A stretch of 10,226 bases of DNA from a virus (Duplodnaviria > Heunggongvirae > Uroviricota > Caudoviricetes), in the IMG/VR virus record IMGVR_UViG_2681813004_000013, positions 1 to 10,226 of that record; one strand, 5' to 3'. This document shows positions 1 to 10,226 of this stretch, piece by piece. Below the pieces are notes generated by a model that was given only the letters and a program-made list of their open reading frames with translations, was not told the DNA's origin and did not search any database. Every line of letters begins with the position of its first letter. The first letter of the stretch is position 1. A program made the position numbers and the translations under genes.

Positions 1-233
1 TTAACCTGGTCGCATTTTTCCTTCGACAGCTTCATTCCCGGTATGACGGGCTTACCATCCACCATTGTGGCACCACGACAGATGGTCCATATACCGGAAC
101 CATCGCGGTATGCCGTAGTGTGGTTACCCTCTTTTTCATCCAGAAACTGGTCAAGTATTTGAGGAGCAGATGCGCCTGCTCCAATCAGCGCCAGAACGAC
201 CGCTGACAGGCCGTATTTGATTTTTGCGTTCAT
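1..233 (-). CDS. Phage endolysin (lysozyme, T4-lysozyme/GH24-like) with N-terminal SAR-type signal-anchor; only the 5' part of the gene is in the window (it continues past coordinate 1)
   Basis: Minus-strand ATG at 231-233 opens a frame with no stop before the window edge. Translation starts MNAKIKYGLSAVVLALIGAGASAPQILDQFLDEKEGNHTTAYRDGSGIWTICRGATMVDGKPV: a Gly/Ala-rich weakly hydrophobic N-terminus followed by an E...D...T spacing typical of SAR endolysins such as phage 21 R. It sits downstream of a pinholin gene. Not in the ORF track because it is truncated by the window edge. Confidence 0.8.
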   Translation of the reverse strand, partial: MNAKIKYGLSAVVLALIGAGASAPQILDQFLDEKEGNHTTAYRDGSGIWTICRGATMVDGKPVIPGMKLSKEKCDQV

Positions 234-338
234 GGATATTTATCAGGATTTATCGGTTTCTGAACCCTGGATATGTTTATCTGTCCCGGCCTGTTGAATC
301 AGGCGGGGAAAAGGTAAAGACAATCAAGAGGATTATTT

Positions 339-611
339 ATGGACAATAACACCATTTCTCTACAGGAGTTGCTCGACTGCATTTCCAGGCTTCGGGATGA
401 TGTAAATGCCCTCACTGTTGCATTTTCATATCTGGCTTTCTCAATTCCCAAAGAACAAATGAAACCAACACTGGCATCGCTTCTGCTTGAGTCACGCAAC
501 CCCAAATGGTCCCAGGAACAACAAAATTCTTTCAAGTGGCTGGCGGCATTACTGGAAGAAAAATATGCTGGTAAAATTACCATTTCGGTGGAGTCTTCAG
601 AGAACCAGTAA
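339..611 (+). CDS. Hypothetical 90-aa protein, moron-like insert transcribed opposite to the lysis genes
   Basis: ATG at 339 is preceded by AAGAGGA (326-332) with a 6-nt spacer. The translation is protein-like (amphipathic, no low-complexity runs), whereas the overlapping minus ORF 299-646 is Ser/Cys-rich and GTG-initiated. A plus-strand intrinsic terminator follows at 654-682. No family recognised. Confidence 0.55.
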   Translation: MDNNTISLQELLDCISRLRDDVNALTVAFSYLAFSIPKEQMKPTLASLLLESRNPKWSQEQQNSFKWLAALLEEKYAGKITISVESSENQ

Positions 612-921
612 TTCTTCCCGGTAGCTTTCCTTTGTAGGTTATCCACACATTATGCGCCTCTAAAATTACGGGGCGCTTTTCCGGCGACTGCTCACTCCCT
701 TCACATAACCCGGCAGCAACATCCAGGAAGACCTGTCTGATGCTCCTTCTGGCTGCTGCCTCATAAAACTCCAGCGCGGCACCTTCAACACGGTCCAGCG
801 AGATGTCCAGGTCAAAAATTTCACCGTCAAAGCGTTTTTTGTCCCGTAACGCTAAAGTTACCGTAACTTTATTCTCAAAATTGCGGATCCCTTTCACAAT
901 CAGTTCATAGTTTTGAGTCAT
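577..921 (-). CDS. YdfR-like small protein of lambdoid lysis cassettes (DUF1327-like); C-terminal part possibly altered by the adjacent insert
   Basis: ATG at 921 with GGGGAGAG SD about 9 nt upstream, 4 nt after the holin stop (926). Its position between holin and endolysin matches the essQ-ydfR-rrrQ order recalled for the Qin prophage. The 3' 100 nt overlap the plus-strand moron ORF and its terminator. Confidence 0.55.
   Translation of the reverse strand: MTQNYELIVKGIRNFENKVTVTLALRDKKRFDGEIFDLDISLDRVEGAALEFYEAAARRSIRQVFLDVAAGLCEGSEQSPEKRPVILEAHNVWITYKGKLPGRITGSLKTPPKW
654..682 (+). terminator. Putative rho-independent terminator for the plus-strand moron ORF
   Basis: GCGCCTC (654-660), 9-nt loop, GGGGCGC (670-676; 7-bp stem with one G-U), then TTTTCC (677-682). 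Lies 43 nt after the stop of ORF 339-611. Confidence 0.4.
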
Positions 922-925
922 TGAA

Positions 926-1141
926 TTACTCTCCCCGTGCAGCCTTACGCTTGTCTTCTTTAATCTTGAAATAAAGGTTTGTCAGATACGTCAGCAAGCC
1001 AAATACCAGACTACCCAGCACACCTATTGCCGCCCACTGTGAGGGCGTGACTTTATCGAGCAACTGTAAAAACCAGTACCCGGCACTACCTGCTGAGGTG
1101 CCATAGGCGACACCCGTTGTTAACTTATCCATGGATTTCAT
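926..1141 (-). CDS. Class II holin of the phage 21 S (pinholin) family with dual-start motif
   Basis: Translation [71 protein letters not shown] (71 aa): two TM segments, a charged C-terminus, and the Met1-Lys2-Ser3-Met4 start arrangement known from S21 (antiholin/holin pair). GAGGTGGGG SD upstream of ATG 1141. The ORF track extends it to a GTG at 1204, which I consider less likely to be the start. Confidence 0.85.
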
Positions 1142-1208
1142 AACCCCACCTCGCAGATGCGGGTGCTGTGTAATGGAAATAAAAAGGCCACCTGACGTGG
1201 CCACCAGA

Positions 1209-2141
1209 TTATTTCCCCACCAGCTCGTTTATCTCTTTCACTGTCTGGTTAAACCGCTCTGACTCAAGCTCAACACCTAAGGCCCGACGCCCCAGCGCCA
1301 TTGCTGCTTTTATTGTGGAACCGGATCCCATAAAAAAATCAGCAACCAGATCACCTGGTCGACTACTGGCATTGATTATTTGCCTGAGCATATCCGCCGG
1401 TTTCTCACACGGATGTTTCCCCGGGTAGAACTGAACGGGTTTATGCATCCAGACATCGGTATAAGGCACGGAGACTGATACGGAGAAATAGCGCCGGAGA
1501 GATTTAAACTCATCCAGCAATTCAGAATATTTGCGATTCAGTGAATCATAAGATGCCACCAGCTGGTGGTGTGGTTGTTCCAGTTGTTGTTCCTGAAACT
1601 TCTCTGCCGCTATACGGGAAAACAGTGCCTGTAACTTCCGATAGTCAGCCTCATTCGGCAACTGCCACTGACTGGCACCAAACCAGTGGGAAACCATATT
1701 TTTCTTACCTGTGGCTTCGGCAATTTGTTTTGCCGTTATACCCAGTTCGGCACGAGCATCCCTGAAATACGATATCAGCGGTGCCATTATGTGCTGTTTG
1801 AGTTCCCTTTCTTTTGCCGCATAGCCGTCACTTTTGCCGCGATATGGCCCCTGGTAATGTTCAGCAAACAGAACGCGCTCTGTGGCAGGAAAATATGCGC
1901 GCTGACTTTCTTTATTACACCCATTCCAACGTCCGGACGGCTTCGCCCAGATGATATGGTTAAGCACGTTGAAACGTTCACGCATCATGATCTCAATATC
2001 AGATGCCAGGCGATGCCCACAGAACAGGTAAAGGCTTCCGGCAGGTTTTAACACCCGCCAGAACTGGGCCAGACAGTGGTCCAGCCACTTAAGGTAATCT
2101 TCGTCCCCTTTCCACTGATTGTCCCAACCGTTAGGTTTCAC
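1209..2141 (-). CDS. DNA methyltransferase, N6_N4 (beta-class, CcrM-like) family; apparently lacks the N-terminal DPPY catalytic region (possible 5'-truncated remnant)
   Basis: C-terminal motifs HPCEKP and DFFMGSGST (motif I, FxGxG) plus internal [12 protein letters not shown] and NHIIWAKP match beta-class MTase signatures. No D/S-PPY motif is found upstream of RVLKP in the ORF or in the in-frame upstream extension, which runs into tRNA-Thr. The first start codon is GTG at 2141, with AAGGGAG about 10 nt upstream. Confidence 0.6.
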
Positions 2142-2187
2142 CTTCAGTCTGCTCCCTTTGGCCGCTCGGGAACCCCACCGGACTTGA

Positions 2188-2263
<76 letters not shown>

Positions 2264-2265
2264 AC

Positions 2266-2341
2266 TGGACCGCCACCGGGGACTCGAACCTCGCACACTC
2301 AACTTAAAGGGTTGACGCTCTTTCCTGATGGCTAGTGGCGG
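2266..2341 (-). tRNA. Atypical tRNA-like gene (positional anticodon UUU, loop CCUUUAA); possibly degenerate
   Basis: Minus-strand CCGCCACTAGCCATCAGGAAAGAGCGTCAACCCTTTAAGTTGAGTGTGCGAGGTTCGAGTCCCCGGTGGCGGTCCA has a perfect 7-bp acceptor stem, T-loop TTCGAGT, encoded CCA and a perfect 5-bp anticodon stem TCAAC/GTTGA. Position 33 is C instead of U, the D-stem is only 2-3 bp, and the T-stem has one A-C mismatch. Confidence 0.5.
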
Positions 2342-2342
2342 T

Positions 2343-2418
2343 TGGTGGCCCTTGCTGGATTTGAACCAGCGACCTGGCGATTATGAGTCGCTCGCTCTCA
2401 CCACTGAGCTAAAGGGCC
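2343..2418 (-). tRNA. tRNA with CAU anticodon, ileX/ileZ-like (tRNA-Ile2 reading AUA after lysidine modification, or tRNA-Met)
   Basis: Minus-strand GGCCCTTTAGCTCAGTGGTGAGAGCGAGCGACTCATAATCGCCAGGTCGCTGGTTCAAATCCAGCAAGGGCCACCA: canonical cloverleaf, anticodon loop CTCATAA. It is close to the E. coli ileX sequence as I recall it. Confidence 0.85.
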
Positions 2419-2446
2419 GAGCCAAAAAATAATAATCAGATGAAAA

Positions 2447-3160
2447 TCAATAATCAAGCCCTTGCCTGGATACATATCTGTCTGGCGGGAAGCCATAATA
2501 GCGGTGAAATACAGAAATAAAGTAGGACCTGCTTGAATAACCGCATTTTTCTGCTATAGCCTGTCCATATCCATGCCGGGAACATAACATATTTACAGCA
2601 ACACGCATCCGCTCTTCCAGCAACAAGCGACTGAACATGCCCCCTTCATTTTTCAGTTTTGTCTTTAACAAACTCTCACTCATATGCAACTGTAGAGCAA
2701 TCGCACCAAGCGTCCAGCTTGCTGATATATCTGTCTGAATTATCGCCCTGACTTTGGCACTTATGCTGGATAAACATCCACTTAAAAACAATGACATCCG
2801 TTCATCTGTTTCAAACAGAGACAGGCAGGCCATCATAAGAAACATATCCGTGGCCTCTCCGGAAAATCCCTGGCTGGTAATTAAAGCCGCAGCCAACGCA
2901 GGATTGTTGGGTTCCAGCAACAGGTAAAGCGGAATGTCAGTCAGACGAGTCCTCGTCAGCTTATGCTGACTTTCCAGATATTGACTTACGACGGATTCGC
3001 TTATATCGACAATTTTAACTTTGCCATAATGCATAAGGAAAAGCTCCCTGATGCATTTGGTGGCCAGAACAACTGAGCCTGGCTTAAGTGACAACGTATC
3101 CTTTTCAAGAAAAATATTAATTGGGGAGCAAACCATGATAACTGAACAGACAACAGCCAT
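2447..3160 (-). CDS. AraC-family transcriptional regulator, AppY-like (prophage-encoded regulator type)
   Basis: The C-terminal 100 aa carry the AraC double-HTH signature (…IAEKCGYSSRSYFISVFHRYYGFPPDRY). The N-terminus MAVVCSVIMVCSP…KVKIVDI aligns with the N-terminus of E. coli AppY as I recall it (MDYVCSVVFICQS…KLRIVDI). ATG at 3160 sits in an AT-rich leader. Confidence 0.8.
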   Translation of the reverse strand: MAVVCSVIMVCSPINIFLEKDTLSLKPGSVVLATKCIRELFLMHYGKVKIVDISESVVSQYLESQHKLTRTRLTDIPLYLLLEPNNPALAAALITSQGFSGEATDMFLMMACLSLFETDERMSLFLSGCLSSISAKVRAIIQTDISASWTLGAIALQLHMSESLLKTKLKNEGGMFSRLLLEERMRVAVNMLCSRHGYGQAIAEKCGYSSRSYFISVFHRYYGFPPDRYVSRQGLDY

Positions 3161-3280
3161 TATAATTTTACTTTCATTAGCAATTGGTTAGCTCAATTAT
3201 AGCCCCAAAAGGTAAATTATCATCAACACATAAGCAAAGGACTGACAGGTGTCGCCCCCCACCAGCCGCCCATTCACCAC

Positions 3281-3307
3281 AAATAAAAAGCCTTCAGGAC
3301 TGAAGGC
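3281..3307 (-). terminator. Rho-independent terminator after the small wHTH gene
   Basis: Minus-strand RNA GCCUUCA-GUCC-UGAAGGC followed by UUUUUAUUU. The hairpin overlaps the UGA stop at 3294-3296. Confidence 0.55.
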
Positions 3308-3491
3308 GTCTGTAACAACCGCACTGATAGTCTGCCAGACCCGCCATAACAAGTTGGGTCAGTATTAACTGGCAGCGTTCGCGTGAAAGGTAAGTATTCT
3401 GCGCAATCTCCCCGACTGTCGCCGGTTCGGTAACGCTTAATTCATCAAACACAACTCTGGCGGTTTCTGTCATATCCTGCTGTTTCAGCAT
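3294..3491 (-). CDS. Small (65 aa) putative winged-helix DNA-binding protein
   Basis: ORF with its own downstream terminator. The segment ATVGEIAQNTYLSRERCQLILTQLVMAGL resembles a wHTH recognition helix (PapI/FaeA-like proteins come to mind). The start codon is ambiguous: ATG at 3491 or ATG at 3473. Confidence 0.45.
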   Translation of the reverse strand: MLKQQDMTETARVVFDELSVTEPATVGEIAQNTYLSRERCQLILTQLVMAGLADYQCGCYRRLQS

Positions 3492-3614
3492 GTCTTTTTA
3501 CCCTTTCCGGTTAACGTGACATACCAATAACTCTTGTCCAAAAAGCCAGCAAGCAGAAAGACCGGTATTCGCAACCACCAGCGTATTTAACGCCCCGTGC
3601 CGTTTTTCAGTCAT

Positions 3615-3638
3615 AAAAAAACCCGCAAAAAGCGGGCT
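3615..3638 (-). terminator. Rho-independent terminator after the ORF6N-like gene
   Basis: On the minus strand, GCCCGC-UUUUU-GCGGGU followed by a 7-U run (plus-strand A-run at 3615-3621). About 100 nt downstream of the stop at 3735. Confidence 0.6.
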
Positions 3639-3734
3639 CTTTCAAATGTCCATGTCTGCTATTCGCCTCGCGGTACAGCTTTGCGAAGCGTACCGGAATT
3701 GAAGCAGTTTATGGCTAAAATTGCAAGAACTTTT

Positions 3735-4346
3735 TTAAAGCTGCATCAGCCTTTCCACCAGTTTATCTCTGCGAACAACAAACCAACCATTGGCTCTCGC
3801 CAGTTCCAGCCATGACTCAAGGGAAATAACAATATCATCATCCCGCAACTGAATTGTGGAAACAGTGACACCGCCTCGCTGATAACAGAGAACTCGCGTG
3901 TCGTAACTTTTCTGGCATGAAGCTGGCGCTGACGGATCCTTTTGTCTGAAATAGCACTCTTCCAGTTTTTCGAACACATCCCACGCCTGATCGGTTTCGA
4001 GCATTTTGGCGTGACGGGCTGCTCCGCGTTCTGTCCAGAGAATGAGGGAGCGGGCTTTCGGGGAAATTTGTAACCCTCTTAAAGATGGTTGCAAATTTTG
4101 TGAGTTACTTAAAGTAACCCGCAAATTTTGTGAGTAGTTTAAAGCTACCCGCAATTCTTTAAGGTCATTACCAACAACTTTGAAAAAGTGTTTCCCTTCA
4201 ACGAAGCGTACTTTGTTCTCATGATGATTCTGGCGAATGCGCACCGGCTCAGTGCCGTAAAGCTGCGCCAAAAGTTCGGTGGTAATAACAGGAATCTGGT
4301 TATGGGTGATCGGGGAGAGAGTTTCAACAGAAATTTGAGTTGTCAT
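3735..4346 (-). CDS. Phage antirepressor-like protein with N-terminal ORF6N-type domain and internal 10-aa tandem repeats
   Basis: ATG at 4346 with AGAGGG SD about 8 nt upstream. The N-terminal segment VITTELLAQLYGTEPVRIRQNHHENKVRFVEGKHFFKVVGNDLKEL fits the ORF6N antirepressor N-domain pattern as I recall it. The central region encodes repeats LRVALNYSQN / LRVTLSNSQN / LQPSLRGLQI from a 30-bp tandem DNA repeat. Confidence 0.5.
   Translation of the reverse strand: MTTQISVETLSPITHNQIPVITTELLAQLYGTEPVRIRQNHHENKVRFVEGKHFFKVVGNDLKELRVALNYSQNLRVTLSNSQNLQPSLRGLQISPKARSLILWTERGAARHAKMLETDQAWDVFEKLEECYFRQKDPSAPASCQKSYDTRVLCYQRGGVTVSTIQLRDDDIVISLESWLELARANGWFVVRRDKLVERLMQL
4090..4149. repeat. Two tandem 30-bp repeats (25/30 identical), each containing a short dyad-symmetric core, inside the ORF6N-like CDS; degenerate partial copies flank them (about 4063-4165)
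   Basis: Unit 1 is gcaaattttgtgagttacttaaagtaaccc; unit 2 is gcaaattttgtgagtagtttaaagctaccc. The cores are GTTAC-ttaaa-GTAAC and GTAG-tttaaag-CTAC. Four of the five differences between units fall at paired positions and preserve the dyad. Confidence 0.8.
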
Positions 4347-4505
4347 AATGACGCCCTCTGGTGGTTTCTTAATAACTCACCACCGACGACGCCAATCATC
4401 TGGTGGTGAACTGTGCGGGGTTGGCGTAACCGGGAAACCGACCGGCGCGGATCTCTCCGCCCCCACACAGCCCACCATAATTCAGATGTGCGCGTGCATA
4501 CGACA

Positions 4506-4529
4506 ATAAAAAACACGCTCGCGGCGTGT
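4506..4529 (-). terminator. tR'-like intrinsic terminator of the short late leader transcript
   Basis: Minus strand ACACGC-CGCGA-GCGUGU followed by UUUUUUAUUG. Lies about 70-80 nt downstream of the putative late promoter. Confidence 0.6.
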
Positions 4530-4590
4530 ATCTGTCGCGGTCTCTATCCAGGACGCCAATCCCGACGCCAGATTTTGCTGGCGCGTGAGG

Positions 4591-4620
4591 AATATAGCCC
4601 CGGATAACAGATTGAGTCAA
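4591..4620 (-). promoter_or_regulatory. Putative Q-dependent late promoter (pR'-like)
   Basis: Minus strand TTGACT (4620-4615), 17-18 bp spacer, then CTATAT/TATATT (4597-4591). The -35 overlaps the Q stop codon. Directly followed by the short leader and terminator, as in lambdoid late regions. Confidence 0.5.
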
Positions 4621-5183
4621 CAGACGGTTTTTAGATCCCCGGAAGAGAATGCATCACGCATCGGCAGATAGAGCATAAACTCTGCCATTTTCAACCACGC
4701 ATCTATGCGATTACGGCACGTGGCGTAACACCACTCAGGGTGTGAATCATTCAGCAATTCAGCCATTTTGCGCTTAGTCATCCCCCGCCCCACATAACGC
4801 TGACTCAGAACATTGAGCAGCCCGGGATAACCTGCCAGTACTTCACCAATAACCCTGTCGATTATTAACGCCTCTGAATCGGTACAATGTGCCAGCCAGC
4901 TTTTTTGATTGCCGTTGATCATATCCCGCAAAAAAGCCTCAAGTTCAGGTTTGTCCAGACCCGCTTTTTTCATCCTCCGGAGCGCCTCGTTAATTGCCGT
5001 TTTTGTCAGCTTTTTAGAGGTCAGTAATTGGTTGAACATATTTCCCGTCTTACCGTCGCCAATATACGACCAACGCCCCCACATACGCAGTTTCCCCTGG
5101 ATCCAGACACTTTCCAGCGTTTTCAGGCGTAAATGCTCACCGCTTTTGCCTGTAATTTCCGGGTATATCATATTTATGCTCAC
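4617..5183 (-). CDS. Late-gene antitermination protein Q (lambdoid Q-like)
   Basis: Sits between rusA and the pR'/tR'-like elements, the canonical Q position. Size is 184-188 aa; the MWGRWSY motif resembles the RWGRW segment recalled from E. coli prophage Q homologues. The track start is GTG at 5183, overlapping the rusA stop; an in-frame ATG at 5169-5171 is the more likely start. Confidence 0.65.
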   Translation of the reverse strand: MSINMIYPEITGKSGEHLRLKTLESVWIQGKLRMWGRWSYIGDGKTGNMFNQLLTSKKLTKTAINEALRRMKKAGLDKPELEAFLRDMINGNQKSWLAHCTDSEALIIDRVIGEVLAGYPGLLNVLSQRYVGRGMTKRKMAELLNDSHPEWCYATCRNRIDAWLKMAEFMLYLPMRDAFSSGDLKTVC

Positions 5184-5545
5184 TCACTTTCAATTTTGTA
5201 AATCTTCACGCCCAGCCGCCCAACAGAAACGAGCTGACCGCGCACAATATTGATTTCATCAAACTGCTCGTCGTCTATGAGAAGTCCGGCATGCGTCAGC
5301 GCATCCAGCGGTGCTTTCAGAATGTTGTCCAGGTCACGGCGGCGCTTATCCGGTGGCTCTGCAATAATTTTTATTGCCAGCCTTCCGGACAGGTTTAATT
5401 TCAACCTCTGCTGGCGAACAATAAGCGCCACATCACGGCGATAACGCTTTCCGGCCTCCGAGATGAAATACGTATTGCCATGACGTCGCCAGTAGGTATT
5501 CACCGTCGGCGGGTAAGGCAAAACAAATTCTATCCGTTCAGTCAT
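5180..5545 (-). CDS. rusA: Holliday junction resolvase RusA
   Basis: Translation MTERIEFVLPYPPTVNTYWRRHGN…PPDKRRRDLDNILKAPLDALTHAGLLIDDEQ matches the RusA family signature (P-P-S/T-x-N-x-Y, RRRDLDN, D-D acidic pair). The ATG directly abuts the upstream stop (TGAATG). Confidence 0.9.
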   Translation of the reverse strand: MTERIEFVLPYPPTVNTYWRRHGNTYFISEAGKRYRRDVALIVRQQRLKLNLSGRLAIKIIAEPPDKRRRDLDNILKAPLDALTHAGLLIDDEQFDEINIVRGQLVSVGRLGVKIYKIESE

Positions 5546-6604
5546 TCATGCTTTCCACTTCAGGACACCCGAATTTCTCGCGTGCATTAAAAAACGAATC
5601 AGCAACAACAGCTGGCTGCCGTGTTTCTCTTCAAATTCTCTTACCCCGGCATGTAGCTCGTTATGGCAGCGTCTACACAACGGAATAACAAACAAATCGT
5701 CAGCCTTTGTTCCCGTTCCCCCCAGTCCATGACCAATGATGTGATGCGGATCATCTGCCTGATTGCCACACGCCATGCACTTCTGCGTTTTTACCCACCG
5801 CGTGTATATCGGCATCTCTTCACGTTGTGGTTTCTGGCGTCTGAGGTATTGAGCAGGAGACTCCGGATCAACAGTTATGCTGACCACCGCTTTTTCCTGT
5901 TGTGGGTTCTGTTGCTGGTGGGCGTAAGGCAACGGCGCAAGATTTTTTGTGCGCTGCTTCAGTATGCTGGTGGCGCTCTGCTCTCCCGGTACGATGTCGC
6001 TTTCACGGTACATTGAGCGGATTTTTTCCGCACGCAACCCCAGCGAACGACGTAATACCGCTTCCGGTAGCGCGTCCGCCACCTGATTGCGGACCGCCCA
6101 CCAGGATAATTCAGCCAGAGATAATTCCCGTTCCTGTGCACCACTTATTGCGTGACGTATGACGTCAATCATCCAGGCTGTCAGATTTTGTTGAGCAAGC
6201 TGCCCGAGTGATTCGGATGTCTGGTCACGCAGCTGGTTGTCGCAGTGCCAGCACAACACCATTGCGCCGGTACCATAACGGTGAATGACGGTTTCACTGT
6301 GGTGATAATCGCCGTGTGGCCACTGGCAGGATTTAACATGACGCAGTAACCAGTCAGACAATGCGCCAGCGCCACCAGCAGCACGAATCACTCGTTCGTC
6401 GCTGAAAAATGGCAGTAATGATTTATCCTCCGCCAGCGGCTGGCGAACGGCAGGAACGACCCCAGACGGCAGATTACGCATGCTTTTCGGTTCCGGCTCC
6501 ACCAGTACCCGGGTATTGTGGAATACCGGCATGGATTCACGGCCCGGCTTAACGATCACCAGCCCGAGTTCCGGTACCAGAACAGGTCGAAGTAATACCC
6601 GCAC
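5546..6604 (-). CDS. DUF968-family prophage protein (YdfU-like) with C-terminal HNH-like zinc motif
   Basis: 352 aa with a GTG start preceded by GGAGG. The C-terminus CMACGNQADDPHHIIGHGLGGTGTKADDLFVIPLCRRCHNELH has CxxC…HH…CxxCH spacing typical of HNH-type nuclease folds. It occupies the position upstream of rusA/Q that YdfU holds in Qin-like prophages. Confidence 0.7.
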   Translation of the reverse strand: MRVLLRPVLVPELGLVIVKPGRESMPVFHNTRVLVEPEPKSMRNLPSGVVPAVRQPLAEDKSLLPFFSDERVIRAAGGAGALSDWLLRHVKSCQWPHGDYHHSETVIHRYGTGAMVLCWHCDNQLRDQTSESLGQLAQQNLTAWMIDVIRHAISGAQERELSLAELSWWAVRNQVADALPEAVLRRSLGLRAEKIRSMYRESDIVPGEQSATSILKQRTKNLAPLPYAHQQQNPQQEKAVVSITVDPESPAQYLRRQKPQREEMPIYTRWVKTQKCMACGNQADDPHHIIGHGLGGTGTKADDLFVIPLCRRCHNELHAGVREFEEKHGSQLLLLIRFLMHARNSGVLKWKA

Positions 6605-6605
6605 G

Positions 6606-6890
6606 TTACCTCCAGAGCCGTTGCTGGAATGTGCGGGACGGACGCGGTGGGCGTTCGGAGTAAGGAAGCCTGACGGAGATTATCCAGTGACGATAATCGA
6701 GGCTGAGGGCTTCCCTAAACTCATACCCACGCCTGCGGTAGTTCTGAATCAGCCATTCGGCCTGTTCTTCAGTGCATGGGTCATGCTGATACCAGTCATA
6801 TTTGAATGTGTGAGAACGCCGCCCGTGCCTACTGGCAAAGACGGCTGAATTATCAGAATTGTTAATTTTTTTGTAATGCACCACTACCAT
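6606..6890 (-). CDS. Hypothetical 94-aa protein
   Basis: ORF whose stop lies 1 nt from the DUF968 GTG start, suggesting translational coupling. A palindromic TATAAT (6935-6940) lies upstream. The SD is poor (GAGG directly abutting the ATG), so the true start is uncertain. No family recognised. Confidence 0.4.
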   Translation of the reverse strand: MVVVHYKKINNSDNSAVFASRHGRRSHTFKYDWYQHDPCTEEQAEWLIQNYRRRGYEFREALSLDYRHWIISVRLPYSERPPRPSRTFQQRLWR

Positions 6891-6950
6891 CCTCGTAATG
6901 GTGCGACAGACGCCAGTTGTTCAGGCTGGCTTTAACTATAGCATTATAAT

Positions 6951-7118
6951 CTAGTCTTTCTTAATGCTGAAGTGACTGACCGAATCCGCATGCGATTCTT
7001 TGGTGATCAGAATAACATCGGGTGGCAATGGCATTACGATAAATTCACCATTCTCAAGAACTATTACTTCATAATTACCAGATACAGAAAGCGCAGCAAT
7101 TAATTCCTTATCATTCAT
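6951..7118 (-). CDS. Possible small protein (55 aa), not in the ORF track
   Basis: Hand translation gives MNDKELIAALSVSGNYEVIVLENGEFIVMPLPPDVILITKESHADSVSHFSIKKD. Protein-like composition, but only a weak SD (AGGG about 9 nt upstream). Confidence 0.3.
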   Translation of the reverse strand: MNDKELIAALSVSGNYEVIVLENGEFIVMPLPPDVILITKESHADSVSHFSIKKD

Positions 7119-7236
7119 AACAAAACCCTATGAACTTTTAACATTTCCCCTTAAGGGGTCCATCCCTCTTCTCCCTGCGCGCTACTTAAGTATTTTTGAT
7201 TCTATTCCGGCACCTTCAAAAAGCTCAAACGTCTTG

Positions 7237-7270
7237 AAAATAAACAACAAAAAACCCGCCGAAGCGGGTT
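7237..7270 (-). terminator. Rho-independent terminator of the hok transcript
   Basis: Minus-strand RNA AACCCGC-UUCG-GCGGGUU (UUCG tetraloop) followed by UUUUGUUGUUUAUUUU. About 70 nt downstream of the hok stop. Confidence 0.75.
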
Positions 7271-7338
7271 AAGTGCGGGTGCGTTGAGGATGCCTGACAC
7301 ATCAGAGGTGGCGAGGGATTTCTCCCCCGCCGGGTCTC

Positions 7339-7494
7339 TTACTCCTCAGGTTCGTAAGCTGTGAAGACAGCGACCTCCGTCTGGCCGGTTCGGATTCGTA
7401 CCTCGCAGAGGTCTTTCCTCGTTACCAGTGCCGTCACTATGACGGTTAAACAGATGACGATCAGGGCGATTAACATCGCCTTTTGCTGCTTCAT
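7339..7494 (-). CDS. Hok-family type I toxin (membrane-depolarising peptide), HokD/Gef-like
   Basis: Hand translation gives MKQQKAMLIALIVICLTVIVTALVTRKDLCEVRIRTGQTEVAVFTAYEPEE (51 aa), which carries the canonical Hok signature (TM helix, then TRK-LCE-R-G--EVAAF-AYE). AAGGAG SD upstream. Not in the ORF track because it is shorter than 60 aa. Confidence 0.85.
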   Translation of the reverse strand: MKQQKAMLIALIVICLTVIVTALVTRKDLCEVRIRTGQTEVAVFTAYEPEE

Positions 7495-7614
7495 AGCCTG
7501 CTTCTCCTTGACCTTTCGGTCCGTAAGAGGCTAATCTCTATGTGTCGCATAGATATGGCCTCAGATTAATGTTAAGCGTCTTGCCGGACGCGTAATGTTA
7601 ACTGGGGCTTTTCT

Positions 7615-7650
7615 CTGTCTGCCTTACGGCGGCATGCCCGAGGCAGACAG
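7615..7650 (-). promoter_or_regulatory. Long stem-loop in the presumed hok mRNA leader (9-bp stem, 18-nt loop containing the palindrome GGCATGCC)
   Basis: ctgtctgcc (7615-7623) pairs with ggcagacag (7642-7650). No U-run follows on either strand, so it is not a terminator. It lies in the region where hok-family loci carry mok/sok/fbi-type RNA elements. Confidence 0.35.
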
Positions 7651-7711
7651 CCTCAAGCACCCGCAGCAATTCTACTTAACTCTCGCTTTACAGCAAACCG
7701 TTTTTGCCCGA

Positions 7712-7727
7712 TATGGGAATTCCCATA
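7712..7727. repeat. Perfect 16-bp palindrome TATGGGAATTCCCATA
   Basis: Exact dyad centred on GAATTC, in the intergenic space between the stop of the 34-aa peptide gene (7738) and the hok leader. A candidate operator or RNA hairpin. Confidence 0.7.
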
Positions 7728-7737
7728 CGGAATGAAT

Positions 7738-7842
7738 TCAGTTCCCCAGGCGATCCATCAAAAACACAACCAGGCAGTAAACACCCACAACAGCAATAAC
7801 AGCCAGAGCGCCTTCCATTACCAGTGAAATATCATCCGACAT
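7738..7842 (-). CDS. Small hydrophobic peptide (34 aa, single predicted TM helix)
   Basis: Hand translation gives MSDDISLVMEGALAVIAVVGVYCLVVFLMDRLGN. The ATG is preceded by a very strong SD, AAGGGAGGG, with a 4-nt spacer. A promoter-like TTGCTA…TAGTAT/TATATG lies upstream (minus strand, about 7880-7910). Confidence 0.5.
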   Translation of the reverse strand: MSDDISLVMEGALAVIAVVGVYCLVVFLMDRLGN

Positions 7843-7951
7843 ATTCCCTCCCTTGGTGTGAATTCCGGCGAACGTTTTTACCCCCACCGACAAATAACAT
7901 ATACTAGAAAAGCAATAGCTATAGCAACGCCTGCAAATGCATCGGGCCGGC

Positions 7952-8785
7952 TCATTGGTGCGCCCCCTGTATCGCTTCTACTGCGATCTGACTGGCGTAT
8001 TTGTTAATGGTAACGATAAGTTCTTGCTCGGCCTCATCCAGACAACCACCGATACCTCGCCTGTCACCTTCAGAAGCATCGAAATCTGCACGAACCCTGG
8101 CGACCTTCAGGATTGCGGACAACACCTCATCAGGGATTGCCGGAGAGTTGGTTGACGTTTCCGAGGTTATCCGAAAATTATTGGTTGACGAATTCTTATT
8201 TTCCCGAAAGTTTTCGGCATGAAGCATGGCGGTGTTATACCCATCCGCGAAAATCTCTGCTTCTTCGTTATTCAGTTCGGCACCAAGTTTAAGCGCAATA
8301 GCTTTTGCCATTGAGGCGGTAATTTGATGGCATGGCTGACGTCCATGAAGCATGGCGTCGCTCCGCTCTATGCCATCCAGCGCAATTCGAAGCGCATGAA
8401 TTGTAGTAATGCTATCGTTTGGGGTTATTCCGTATCGTTCGAATACAGCGATATGGTTGCGCATAATCGCAGGTGTAAGCTCTTTGTAAGCAAGAGCAAG
8501 AGGTCCAGATACATCGTTCAGCACTACCGTCATCGGTGAGGCGGCGTAGACTTCAATAATCCCAGTATCAATAGGCCATTCCCCATCCTTGATATAGTAA
8601 CTTGTTCCGTCAACTTGCTGTTCTACAATGTGGAAAGCACCTATTGGTTCTGCTTCCAGCGATGCCAGTGCAATTTTGAATAACTCGCCCTCTACCCGTG
8701 CCATCCCTGAATTGGGGTAGCATTTCGCAATCGCTATTTTTAATTTGGCTTCTTCGATTAATTTCTCTTTGGTTAATTCAGTCAC
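7952..8785 (-). CDS. Hypothetical 277-aa protein of unknown function (two predicted domains joined by a Ser/Thr/Asn-rich linker)
   Basis: Long ORF with protein-like composition. The only in-frame start at the 5' end is GTG at 8785, served by a hairpin-bridged AGGAGG. The linker is NSSTNNFRITSETSTNSPAIP. No family recognised from the sequence. Confidence 0.6.
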   Translation of the reverse strand: MTELTKEKLIEEAKLKIAIAKCYPNSGMARVEGELFKIALASLEAEPIGAFHIVEQQVDGTSYYIKDGEWPIDTGIIEVYAASPMTVVLNDVSGPLALAYKELTPAIMRNHIAVFERYGITPNDSITTIHALRIALDGIERSDAMLHGRQPCHQITASMAKAIALKLGAELNNEEAEIFADGYNTAMLHAENFRENKNSSTNNFRITSETSTNSPAIPDEVLSAILKVARVRADFDASEGDRRGIGGCLDEAEQELIVTINKYASQIAVEAIQGAHQ

Positions 8786-8816
8786 TTTTCATTACCGCCC
8801 TTTCGGGCGGCCTCCT
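8783..8816 (-). promoter_or_regulatory. Structured translation-initiation region: AGGAGG, 16-nt GNRA-type hairpin, then GTG start
   Basis: Minus-strand RNA AGGAGG-CCGCCC-GAAA-GGGCGG-UAAUGAAAA-GUG. The linear SD-to-start distance is 25 nt, reduced to about 9 nt if the 6-bp GC hairpin forms. Confidence 0.4.
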
Positions 8817-8820
8817 GACA

Positions 8821-9033
8821 TTAATCGTTGTGATAACTCATAGCTTCATTTGCAGCATCAACTGGATCAACATCCCACCAGCAATAATTTGGGTCGACAC
8901 CTTCAGGTGTCCACGGCTCTAATTCATTTTTTGCTACATTCTCGTCACCAGTAATTTTAAAAATCTGCTCAGAGAATTTTTTTACCCACTCGTTATATTT
9001 TTCCGCGTTAATGGTTTTCTGTGTATTTAACAT
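8821..9033 (-). CDS. Hypothetical 70-aa acidic protein
   Basis: ATG at 9033 with GGAGG SD and a 7-nt spacer. Translation MLNTQKTINAEKYNEWVKKFSEQIFKITGDENVAKNELEPWTPEGVDPNYCWWDVDPVDAANEAMSYHND. AT-rich relative to its neighbours. No family recognised. Confidence 0.55.
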   Translation of the reverse strand: MLNTQKTINAEKYNEWVKKFSEQIFKITGDENVAKNELEPWTPEGVDPNYCWWDVDPVDAANEAMSYHND

Positions 9034-9078
9034 AGATATACCTCCGGTTAAGGATTAAATTTTATTTACAGTGCTGAT

Positions 9079-9438
9079 TTAATATTCAGTTCTGGCTTTT
9101 GTTGCCCTGCGTATCCGCGCTTTCGCGTTACGCTCAATCTGAATTAGCTTTTCTATATTTTTTCGCCTTTCCTGTTCCTCCTGGCGCAATAGCCTTACAT
9201 CATCTGCCAGTCTGGTTTCTCTTTTAGCCACAGAGAGCATCCAGTCAAACGGCTCCACAACTGCACCACAGATTTTGCAGCGGACCTGACGCTCTTTTTC
9301 GTCAACCCGGACAGAAGCGTGATGGCAGTATGGTCTTTCCGATGGCTCATAAAGAAAATTAACCTGATTACGTGGGTCATCCTCTTTTACCGGAAATAAA
9401 ACGATATTGCTTAACTCATCTTCTGGTTTTATTTCCAT
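9079..9438 (-). CDS. Hypothetical 119-aa protein with a Cys/His cluster (putative zinc ribbon) and a basic coiled-coil C-terminus
   Basis: Preferred start is ATG at 9438, preceded by AAAGGAGAGGAG; the track's TTG at 9489 has no SD. Contains YCHH…(15)…CKIC, then a Lys/Arg/Glu-rich helical tail. Confidence 0.55.
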   Translation of the reverse strand: MEIKPEDELSNIVLFPVKEDDPRNQVNFLYEPSERPYCHHASVRVDEKERQVRCKICGAVVEPFDWMLSVAKRETRLADDVRLLRQEEQERRKNIEKLIQIERNAKARIRRATKARTEY

Positions 9439-9495
9439 GCTCCTCTCCTTTGATGCGAATGCCAGCGATAATTGAAGCCTGATAGCCAATTTTAC

Positions 9496-9915
9496 TCACA
9501 GCCCCCCCTGATAATTTCCCTGATAAAACGCCAGCACTCGCTGCATAACTTCGCTCTTCCGGCACTCGCGACAGATTATATTCAGGCGCCTGTCGTAGCG
9601 ACGTATTTCTCCGTCTGGTAATGACCATATAAGGTCAGGATCAACCACAACCGGTTTCTTCAGCTTTGCCCTCGATAATTTTTTGCGGGCGTTTTGCCAG
9701 TCCTTACGAGCCTGTTCAGAGGGGAATAATCCGTAGCCTGAATTGTAAACATCACCACTGGCGACCAGTTCTCTGGCGAGAGTGCTTATGTAATACCTTG
9801 ATGCACCGGTTTTAGCCTCCAGAGCCCGTAACGTCTCGCGACCGCTCAGACGTACAAGTTCAATAACCTGCCCTTTAATTTTTTCTCGCTCTTCTTGTGT
9901 AAAAACTTTTGCCAC
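9496..9915 (-). CDS. Hypothetical 139-aa protein with probable helix-turn-helix
   Basis: GTG start with AGGAGG SD and a 4-nt spacer. The segment RETLRALEAKTGASRYYISTLAREL is HTH-like. A C-terminal CRECRK motif is present. Confidence 0.5.
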   Translation of the reverse strand: MAKVFTQEEREKIKGQVIELVRLSGRETLRALEAKTGASRYYISTLARELVASGDVYNSGYGLFPSEQARKDWQNARKKLSRAKLKKPVVVDPDLIWSLPDGEIRRYDRRLNIICRECRKSEVMQRVLAFYQGNYQGGL

Positions 9916-9955
9916 AAGTCCTCCTGAAAATTACCTCGTGACCTGAAATAAACAC

Positions 9956-10226
9956 TTACCCCCTGAAGCCCGGTGGAATTTCGGTATCCGGTTCAGAAAT
10001 ATGATTCACACAACGCTGGTTGTTCGTGCCGCTTACCGGGAGCAACCAGGGGTTTTCAAAATTTCGGTCCGGTCCAAAAAACGTCGTCGCTCGCTGAACA
10101 AATTCCGTTCCAGTTTTCCCGGTAACCGCCAGATATCTTGCGTAACGCCTCACGCCATCCAGCATGGCCTCTGGTGGCACCCCCTCGCGTAATCTGGCCT
10201 TCCAGGCACTGAAAGCGGATTTCTTC
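9956..10226 (-). CDS. 3' end of an early-region gene of unknown function (the start lies beyond the window end)
   Basis: The minus-strand frame is open from the window edge to the TAA at 9956-9958. The track's Met at 10180 is an internal GTG codon. The translation …AFSAWKARLREGVPPEAMLDGVRRYARYLAVTGKTGTEFVQRATTFFGPDRNFENPWLLP… is protein-like. Confidence 0.45.
   Translation of the reverse strand, partial: KKSAFSAWKARLREGVPPEAMLDGVRRYARYLAVTGKTGTEFVQRATTFFGPDRNFENPWLLPVSGTNNQRCVNHISEPDTEIPPGFRG

Follow-up and report, generated by a model that had tools for sequence, protein, structure and literature searches.

A probable degenerating tRNA of argN descent with a lysine-type anticodon in a lambdoid prophage

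We analysed 10,226 nucleotides of viral DNA (Caudoviricetes; IMG/VR record IMGVR_UViG_2681813004_000013, positions 1 to 10,226; hereafter the window) and focused on the middle gene of a cluster of three tRNA genes on its minus strand. We conclude that this gene is probably a degenerating pseudo-tRNA (we put the probability at about 0.6): an anticodon-switched copy of the lineage of the prophage tRNA-Arg gene argN, with little or no role in decoding. The reading draws on homology, derived states, loss of covariance score and allele frequencies; transcription and processing of the gene, and its lack of aminoacylation, we infer.

The middle gene departs from a canonical tRNA

The features of the gene that bear on this conclusion are as follows.

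2266–2341, minus strand: middle tRNA-like gene, 76 nucleotides, homologue of the argN slot (ARAGORN call Lys(TTT) and alignments; no RF00005 match)
2304–2310, minus strand: anticodon loop CCUUUAA, with C33 at 2309 and the anticodon UUU at 2306–2308 (sequence)
2330–2331, minus strand: site of a derived one-nucleotide deletion (ΔU12), loss of U12 from the D-stem strand GCUC, which here reads GC-C (alignment of 43 alleles)

The 5′ part of the gene reads CCGCCAC UA GCCA UCAGGAAA GAGC G UCAAC CCUUUAA GUUGA GUGUG, and the remainder, to the 3′ end, CGAGG UUCGAGU CCCCG GUGGCGG U CCA. A preliminary description of this DNA had called the gene atypical on account of C33, an anticodon UUU assigned by position and a barely paired D-stem, and had proposed a check with ARAGORN, which does call a Lys(TTT) tRNA at 2266–2341 on the minus strand. 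The atypical features are all present: the loop is CCUUUAA, and the only Watson–Crick pairs of the D-stem are G10–C25 and C11–G24, three pairs being reached when A23 is bulged. The same description had taken the remaining arms to be perfect; this holds for the acceptor stem (7/7 pairs) and the anticodon stem (5/5) but not for the T-arm, whose stem has four of five pairs and an A51·C63 mismatch. That mismatch is marked as non-canonical in the Rfam alignment of an intact 77-nucleotide sister allele, an alignment that also places C at the consensus U33 column. The discriminator base is U73, the 3′ CCA is encoded and the T-loop is conserved (GUUCGAGUC type).

Against RF00005, the Rfam tRNA model, whose gathering score is 29 bits, the window copy gave no match even at E ≤ 10, and its sole match after clan competition was to tRNA-Sec at 17.8 bits (E = 0.47). 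A tRNA-Sec-like reading, with an acceptor stem of 8–9 base pairs and an A−1:U73 pair, was considered and rejected: 17.8 bits compares with a tRNA-Sec gathering score of 47 bits, and the base at −1 is A, G or U among relatives. The normal covariance-model match expected of an ordinary tRNA is therefore lacking for the window copy, and identical sequence was found only in another prophage contig (IMG/VR locus L088; L numbers denote loci), likewise without an RF00005 match. The intact 77-nucleotide allele, which shares UUU and C33, scores 44.4 bits; intact UUU/C33 alleles as a group score 40–45 bits, relatives with the anticodon UCU 52–57 bits and argN of O157 42.9 bits, while alleles carrying ΔU12 or a U8C substitution give no match at E ≤ 10.

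Folding predictions give cloverleaf energies of −31.5 kcal/mol for a UCU relative, −22.3 kcal/mol for the intact UUU allele and −17.0 kcal/mol for the window copy. In the UCU relative the cloverleaf is essentially the predicted optimum; that of the window copy is a non-cloverleaf structure at −25.2 kcal/mol, leaving its cloverleaf about 8 kcal/mol worse. Across all fetched loci, 118 of 137 distinct ARAGORN tRNAs have U33 and 18 have C33, and 17 of those 18 belong to the middle-gene lineage; this concentration and the missing RF00005 match indicate that the atypicality of the gene exceeds chance. In RF00005 score, cloverleaf stems and U33, the window copy is not a canonical tRNA.

The gene appears to descend from tRNA-Arg by an anticodon switch

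The gene names ileZ–argN–argO are those of the Shiga toxin (Stx) phage 933W, with argN encoding tRNA-Arg(UCG), and are attributed to Plunkett et al. (1999). The whole cluster in the window is 77–80% identical to ileZ–argN–argO of Stx2 phages and O157 prophages, annotated Ile, Arg and Arg by the Prokaryotic Genome Annotation Pipeline (PGAP), so that the comparison with this cluster suggested in the preliminary description proved apt: judged by position and alignment, the middle gene is the homologue of argN, the first Arg gene. Like argN, it comes directly behind an identical Ile2(CAU) gene, with the Q/regulatory region upstream and the lysis genes downstream, the order also found in O157/Stx loci, and it shares the C1–G72 acceptor stem, U73, an A20-containing D-loop, the T-loop and the encoded CCA. 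Unlike argN, it has UUU rather than UCG or UCU, C33, an A30–U40 pair and no U12, and the third gene of its cluster is a host-type Thr(UGU) rather than argO. Stx2 phages have been described as carrying one tRNA-Met and two tRNA-Arg genes (PMC7946995).

Alignments show that the acceptor, D and T arms are common to the UCG, UCU, UGG and UUU alleles of the argN slot. The cloverleaf is 95.9% paired across 43 distinct alleles, against 29–53% in slid controls, and double compensatory changes occur at pairs 7–66, 27–43 and 30–40, which makes the family a genuine tRNA lineage. Its anticodons comprise UCG, the main Stx/O157 form, UCU, which is rare, UGG in phage TL-2011c, GCG, seen once, and UUU.

The polarity of the change can be read from the same alignment, in which U12, U33 and C35 are present in all non-UUU relatives and every UUU allele of the lineage has C33, with position 32 varying among C, A and U. 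The UCU alleles used for polarity include L231 and L005; the first is the closest canonical form, lying in an Ile2–X–Thr–Gly cluster and having the A30–U40 stem, the loop CUUCUAA (Arg UCU) and a score of 54.2 bits. Because it combines the same cluster and stem with U33 and UCU, the UUU/C33 state is the derived one, reached from tRNA-Arg(UCU) through the transitions U33C and C35U. Searches for an intermediate with U33 and UUU in this tRNA body returned three unrelated tRNA-Lys genes from IMG/VR and nothing from metagenomes; those for C33 with UCU returned nothing from either.

In place of the UCG or UCU of the argN slot, then, the window gene has a derived anticodon, the U34 U35 U36 of tRNA-Lys, and its seven-nucleotide loop matches that of host tRNA-Lys except at position 33. 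It has U73 rather than the A73 of tRNA-Lys, and a body that by homology is of argN rather than lysT type. Altered decoding, which the preliminary description had offered as one explanation, holds in so far as the anticodon has changed from Arg (UCU/UCG) to UUU. Our search of the literature on ileZ, argN and argO and on C33 in phage tRNAs found no paper on an Arg-to-UUU switch or on C33 here.

The change resembles tRNA gene remolding, in which an anticodon point change likewise shifts a duplicated or accessory tRNA to another codon family, and the sister alleles with UCG, UCU, UGG and GCG show that the argN slot tolerates such shifts, damage having accumulated later. Unlike functional remolded tRNAs, which keep U33 and an intact core, the switch here is linked to C33, and damage to the core came after it. 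Eukaryotic cytoplasmic initiator tRNAs are a natural class with C33; they belong to an unrelated lineage with a special function in initiation, and lend no support to C33 in bacterial elongator tRNAs.

Other occupants of the slot are themselves varied. The Stx2 phage TL-2011c, from an outbreak strain (JQ011318.1; L002, 3090–3166), has an argN homologue with UGG, one base from UCG, that ARAGORN calls tRNA-Pro; it has C1–G72, scores 54.7 bits against RF00005 and is the only such allele among about 220 sampled loci. The UCG-bearing argN of O157:H7 FRIK944 (L006, 1616–1692; 42.9 bits) has U32 and the mismatches A6·A67 and A52·C62, and its cloverleaf lies 9 kcal/mol above its predicted optimum, so that the reference gene of the slot is not a well-formed tRNA in every strain. 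In four loci (L008, 1594–1693; L155; L169; L187) the anticodon arm has been replaced by unrelated sequence; these disrupted genes retain the D-arm and the T/acceptor 3′ end, and neither ARAGORN nor PGAP reports a tRNA.

Loss of U12 distinguishes the window copy from a common allele

Of the 43 distinct alleles aligned, 41 have T in column 12; the gap there is confined to the allele of the window and L088 and to an O111-type allele. The common allele is 77 nucleotides long with its D-stem (GCUC/GAGC) intact, and the window copy differs from it by the loss of U12 alone. Identical copies of the 77-nucleotide allele occur in 279 complete-genome records; by megablast it is matched in 798 of 5,426 complete E. 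coli genomes (about 15%), with 753 records at least 95% identical. It has an above-threshold RF00005 match, carries the conventional tRNA-Lys annotation from PGAP and is also found in isolated phages. Of the species representatives in GTDB, E. coli and Shigella flexneri alone carry the loop-arm sequence, apart from two chance matches in Flavobacteriia. The exact 76-nucleotide allele of the window was not found in complete E. coli genomes, where the best match was 98.7%. PGAP leaves the ΔU12 and U8C alleles unannotated as tRNA, unlike the intact allele; some phage records do label the deleted allele tRNA-Lys.

As a single-base indel accounts for the whole difference from the common allele, the window gene might be a normal tRNA-Lys gene carrying a sequencing or assembly error. 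The deletion recurs, however, in independent records: with the window's exact 76-nucleotide sequence in L088, and together with C70U in the enterohaemorrhagic E. coli O111 strain RM9322, in 13 IMG/VR loci, of which L009 is from that strain, and in 11 PPompW phage records, whose right flank differs from that of the window and L088. We therefore regard sequencing error as ruled out and the deletion as real and heritable. A recombination or attachment site would account for tRNA genes coinciding with mosaic joints, as at the right flank in O111 and in the host thrU–tyrU DNA after the Thr gene; against this, no integrase or att-type repeat tied to the middle gene was found in the window, and homology in relatives continues straight through the gene. 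Artefact or recombination site, we judge both extremely unlikely.

The UUU lineage shows signs of relaxed constraint

Because loci were gathered with search patterns that had to match exactly, placed in either the anticodon arm or the T/acceptor arm, variation in those arms is under-sampled and comparisons of damage between regions are biased. The share of copies that are not the main allele is, across 126 loci, 46% for the middle gene, about 10% for Ile2 and about 34% for Thr. Two damaging variants, U8C in 26 copies and ΔU12 in 15, together affect about one third of copies of the UUU lineage; rarer ones (G24A, G24U, C25A, G52A and G42A) are found in a few copies each, and A9G was also seen. 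The overall picture is one of relaxed constraint and mounting damage, and the window copy is an advanced example. The A30–U40 pair was dropped as a sign of selection after the switch: L231 has the pair already, so it predates the switch and is uninformative on constraint afterwards.

Of the explanations that the preliminary description had listed, a decaying pseudo-tRNA is thus the best supported for this copy, in view of ΔU12, C33, the A·C pair, the loss of covariance score and the weak cloverleaf. Several observations weigh against it. In the window copy the acceptor and anticodon stems, the T-loop and the encoded CCA are all intact, and ARAGORN still calls it a tRNA. Within the UUU lineage, stem substitutions run mostly from C to U and leave a G·U pair in place, a hint of continuing constraint, and the ΔU12 allele persists in two right-hand contexts, that of the window and L088 and that of O111 and PPompW. 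Tertiary contacts and modifications help bacterial tRNAs to fold, and the energy model ignores both; the sampling bias described above bears on the allele comparisons as well.

The intact acceptor stem and T-loop would also suit a tRNA-shaped processing element, which has lost decoding and kept its acceptor/T helix so that RNase P matures the neighbouring tRNAs. The short spacers agree with this idea, as RNase P would cut 1 nucleotide after the Ile2 CCA and 2 nucleotides after the gene's own CCA; damage in the common alleles lies in positions 8–25 (U8C, A9G, ΔU12, G24 and C25), and changes in the acceptor stem almost all preserve wobble pairing. That concentration of damage is confounded by the patterns with which loci were collected, which fixed the other arms, and we set D-arm enrichment aside as uninterpretable evidence for a processing role. 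Moreover, RNase P would be expected to recognise the downstream Thr tRNA by itself, and clusters of the L008 type, in which the middle gene is rearranged or unannotated, keep their Ile2 and Arg genes. We consider a processing element improbable.

A nuclease-evading lysine tRNA is an unlikely alternative

E. coli has a single tRNA-Lys(UUU), and AAA is not a rare codon, so codon supplementation fails to explain a UUU tRNA in a phage. The UUU/C33 family might instead be a lysine decoder built on an Arg body, with which lambdoid prophages of E. coli and Shigella would sustain translation of AAA and AAG when defence nucleases destroy host tRNA-Lys. With its Arg-type body and C33 it would be cut poorly by these nucleases, C33 contributing to the escape, and the prophage could finish late translation after induction or superinfection. 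For the family as a whole we hold this to be unlikely. For the window copy, which would have to be a working decoder, charged by lysyl-tRNA synthetase (LysRS) through UUU and escaping AriB, PrrC and RloC with its D-stem deletion tolerated, it seems quite unlikely. Amber suppressors made from the tRNA-Arg and tRNA-Thr of E. coli reportedly insert lysine (Normanly et al. 1990).

The nuclease AriB of the PARIS system cleaves tRNA-Lys and tRNA-Thr(UGU) at U36AAUC|A41; cleavage is abolished by U39A and impaired by A41C and U16C, and a variant tRNA-Lys of phage T5 escapes it (PMC12409363). Variant tRNA-Lys of phage origin rescues phages from both PARIS and PrrC170, which E. coli tRNA-Lys does poorly or not at all (PMC12409363, PMC11555353). 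The middle gene reads U36AAGUU41 (G39, U40 and U41) and has C16, and so differs in sequence from the AriB substrate at the mapped positions 39, 41 and 16; by this comparison it combines the anticodon of a targeted host tRNA with substitutions at positions where changes impair cleavage, as would be expected of a nuclease-evading tRNA. PrrC cuts 3′ of U33 (PMC2610378), and position 33 is C here; we found nothing in the literature on PrrC and this position beyond the location of the cleavage site. A decoder is also favoured by the constant linkage of UUU to C33, with intermediates absent from IMG/VR and metagenomes, and by the spread of the intact allele, which isolated phages carry as well as about 15% of complete E. 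coli genomes.

A second, independent switch to UUU points in the same direction. It lies in a thrU-type body (loop CUUUUAA, G35U) at five IMG/VR loci (L042, 3480–3555; L059; L074; L078; and one more), where the gene scores 74.2 bits against RF00005 and directly follows a U8C allele of the middle tRNA, giving those prophages two tandem UUU tRNAs.

Set against a decoder are the broken D-stem and missing covariance-model match of the window copy, a discriminator U73 instead of the A73 of tRNA-Lys, the lowered ribosomal performance expected from C33 and A51·C63, and plain damage (U8C, ΔU12) in about a third of copies. Since the Thr(UGU) gene next to it retains UAAUCA, the motif cut by AriB, the cluster does not form a coherent anti-PARIS set. 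Like the tRNA-Lys of T5 (against AriB) and of SP15 (against PrrC170), the gene is phage-borne, has the UUU of the nuclease-targeted host tRNA-Lys and differs from it in sequence at the AriB-relevant positions 39, 41 and 16. Those evaders are bona fide tRNA-Lys bodies with few substitutions, borne by virulent phages with large tRNA sets, and their rescue has been demonstrated; the gene described here has an Arg-lineage body, C33, U73 and a damaged D-stem, and belongs to temperate phages.

The neighbouring tRNA genes are canonical and partly host-derived

The rest of the cluster, on the same strand, comprises the following.

2429–2457, minus strand: sigma-70-like promoter match, TTGATT-17-TATTAT, about 10 nucleotides upstream of the first tRNA (consensus scan)
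2343–2418, minus strand: tRNA-Ile2 type, ileZ homologue, anticodon CAT, first gene of the cluster (ARAGORN Met/Ile2; RF00005 72.5 bits)
2342, minus strand: 1-nucleotide spacer (A) between the Ile2 CCA and the middle gene (sequence)
2264–2265, minus strand: 2-nucleotide spacer (GU) ahead of the third tRNA (sequence)
2188–2263, minus strand: tRNA-Thr(UGU), identical to host thrU (ARAGORN; RF00005 73.8 bits; identity to chromosomal thrU)
2145–2187, minus strand: host thrU–tyrU spacer (8 nucleotides, 2180–2187) and tyrU nucleotides 1–35 (2145–2179) (alignment with E. coli IAI1)

Both flanking tRNAs are canonical and have the anticodons CAU and UGU, and the spacers are 1 and 2 nucleotides long, all as first described. 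PGAP calls the identical Ile2 gene tRNA-Ile, an identical copy is present in 111 of 124 related loci, and the spacer base at 2342 is G in 26 related loci. The sigma-70-like match is weak, the match count being equal to the shuffle expectation.

The flanking genes had also been regarded as a phage set for rare codons, a view that does not fit Thr(UGU): this gene matches the chromosomal thrU of many E. coli genomes at 100% identity and is followed by the host's 8-nucleotide spacer and the first 35 nucleotides of tyrU, again 100% identical to the E. coli chromosome, the homology stopping inside the tyrU anticodon loop. The same stretch was seen otherwise only at L088 (3240–3282), which breaks at exactly the same nucleotide before continuing into different DNA, and at L222 (678–720). 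The window and all fetched prophage loci lack the 3′ half of tyrU, which was sought as a test of integration. Where the cluster has its common form, the Thr and Gly genes are host thrU and glyT, and their junction is what a deletion of tyrU and its spacers would leave; the identity of thrU, glyT and tyrU to the chromosome indicates that part of the phage tRNA cluster is recently host-derived. A DNA methylase open reading frame (1209–2141, minus strand; N6_N4_Mtase, E = 1e-36) begins exactly at the tyrU-fragment junction. Its match to the Pfam profile starts at position 20, which suggests a truncated N-terminus; the relative L008 has a full-length methylase, but on the upstream side of its tRNA cluster.

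Overall, the window corresponds to the part of a lambdoid prophage devoted to late regulation and lysis, carried on the minus strand, with the following genes among its landmarks.

4617–5183, minus strand: Q-like antiterminator
2447–3160, minus strand: AraC-type helix-turn-helix protein
926–1204, minus strand: holin

In minus-strand order the genes are hok/sok, DUF968 and RusA, the Q-like gene, the isrK/C4 antisense RNAs and an ORF6N gene, the AraC-type helix-turn-helix gene and the tRNAs, 3′ of which lie the truncated methylase, the holin and DUF1327. Rfam identifies a C4 antisense RNA (67.8 bits), its a1/b1 target (50.5 bits) and isrK (75.5 bits) at 4399–4597 on the minus strand. Directly downstream, between the Q-like gene and the tRNAs, is the antirepressor-type gene with the ORF6N domain (3735–4346, minus strand), an arrangement resembling the immI module of P1/P7 type. 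The hok/sok module lies inside the prophage (7339–7662, minus strand), its sok RNA (105.9 bits) overlapping the start of a 51-amino-acid Hok/Gef open reading frame (E = 1e-23).

Discussion

The decay that we favour for the window copy would have begun in the short tRNA operon of lambdoid prophages, which separates the Q/regulatory region from the lysis genes and is represented in Stx/O157 phages by ileZ–argN–argO. One branch of the lineage gained U33C and C35U in its middle Arg(UCU) tRNA, giving the loop CCUUUAA and placing a lysine-type anticodon on an Arg-tRNA body with C1–G72, U73 and A20. The window copy has in addition lost U12, reducing its D-stem to two Watson–Crick pairs. It may still be co-transcribed with its neighbours, and because the acceptor/T helix and the encoded CCA are intact it is probably still excised, presumably by RNase P acting on that helix; excision would also free the 3′ end of Ile2 and the 5′ end of Thr. 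To decoding it would add little or nothing.

What this means is mostly a caveat for annotation and an example of tRNA decay, the counter-defence idea for the intact allele being unproven. The label tRNA-Lys in hundreds of E. coli genomes is attached to a gene of Arg lineage with a switched anticodon and C33, many copies of which, the window's among them, are damaged. Caution is due when prophage tRNA-Lys genes are counted and when such counts are used to argue for codon supplementation. The argN slot, with UCG, UCU, UGG and UUU, shows how readily accessory phage tRNAs change anticodon, and its cluster has twice yielded UUU tRNAs, a specificity attacked by several E. coli defence nucleases.

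If the intact allele proved to be charged and nuclease-resistant, tRNA-based counter-defence would extend from large virulent to common temperate coliphages. A true decoder would be a case of counter-defence by a temperate phage through an alloacceptor anticodon switch, and a natural bacterial elongator-type tRNA lacking U33, with the window copy either a tolerated variant or one recently inactivated. If the allele were neither charged nor nuclease-resistant, the lineage would stand as a clear example of the decay of a tRNA gene whose operon neighbours remain intact.

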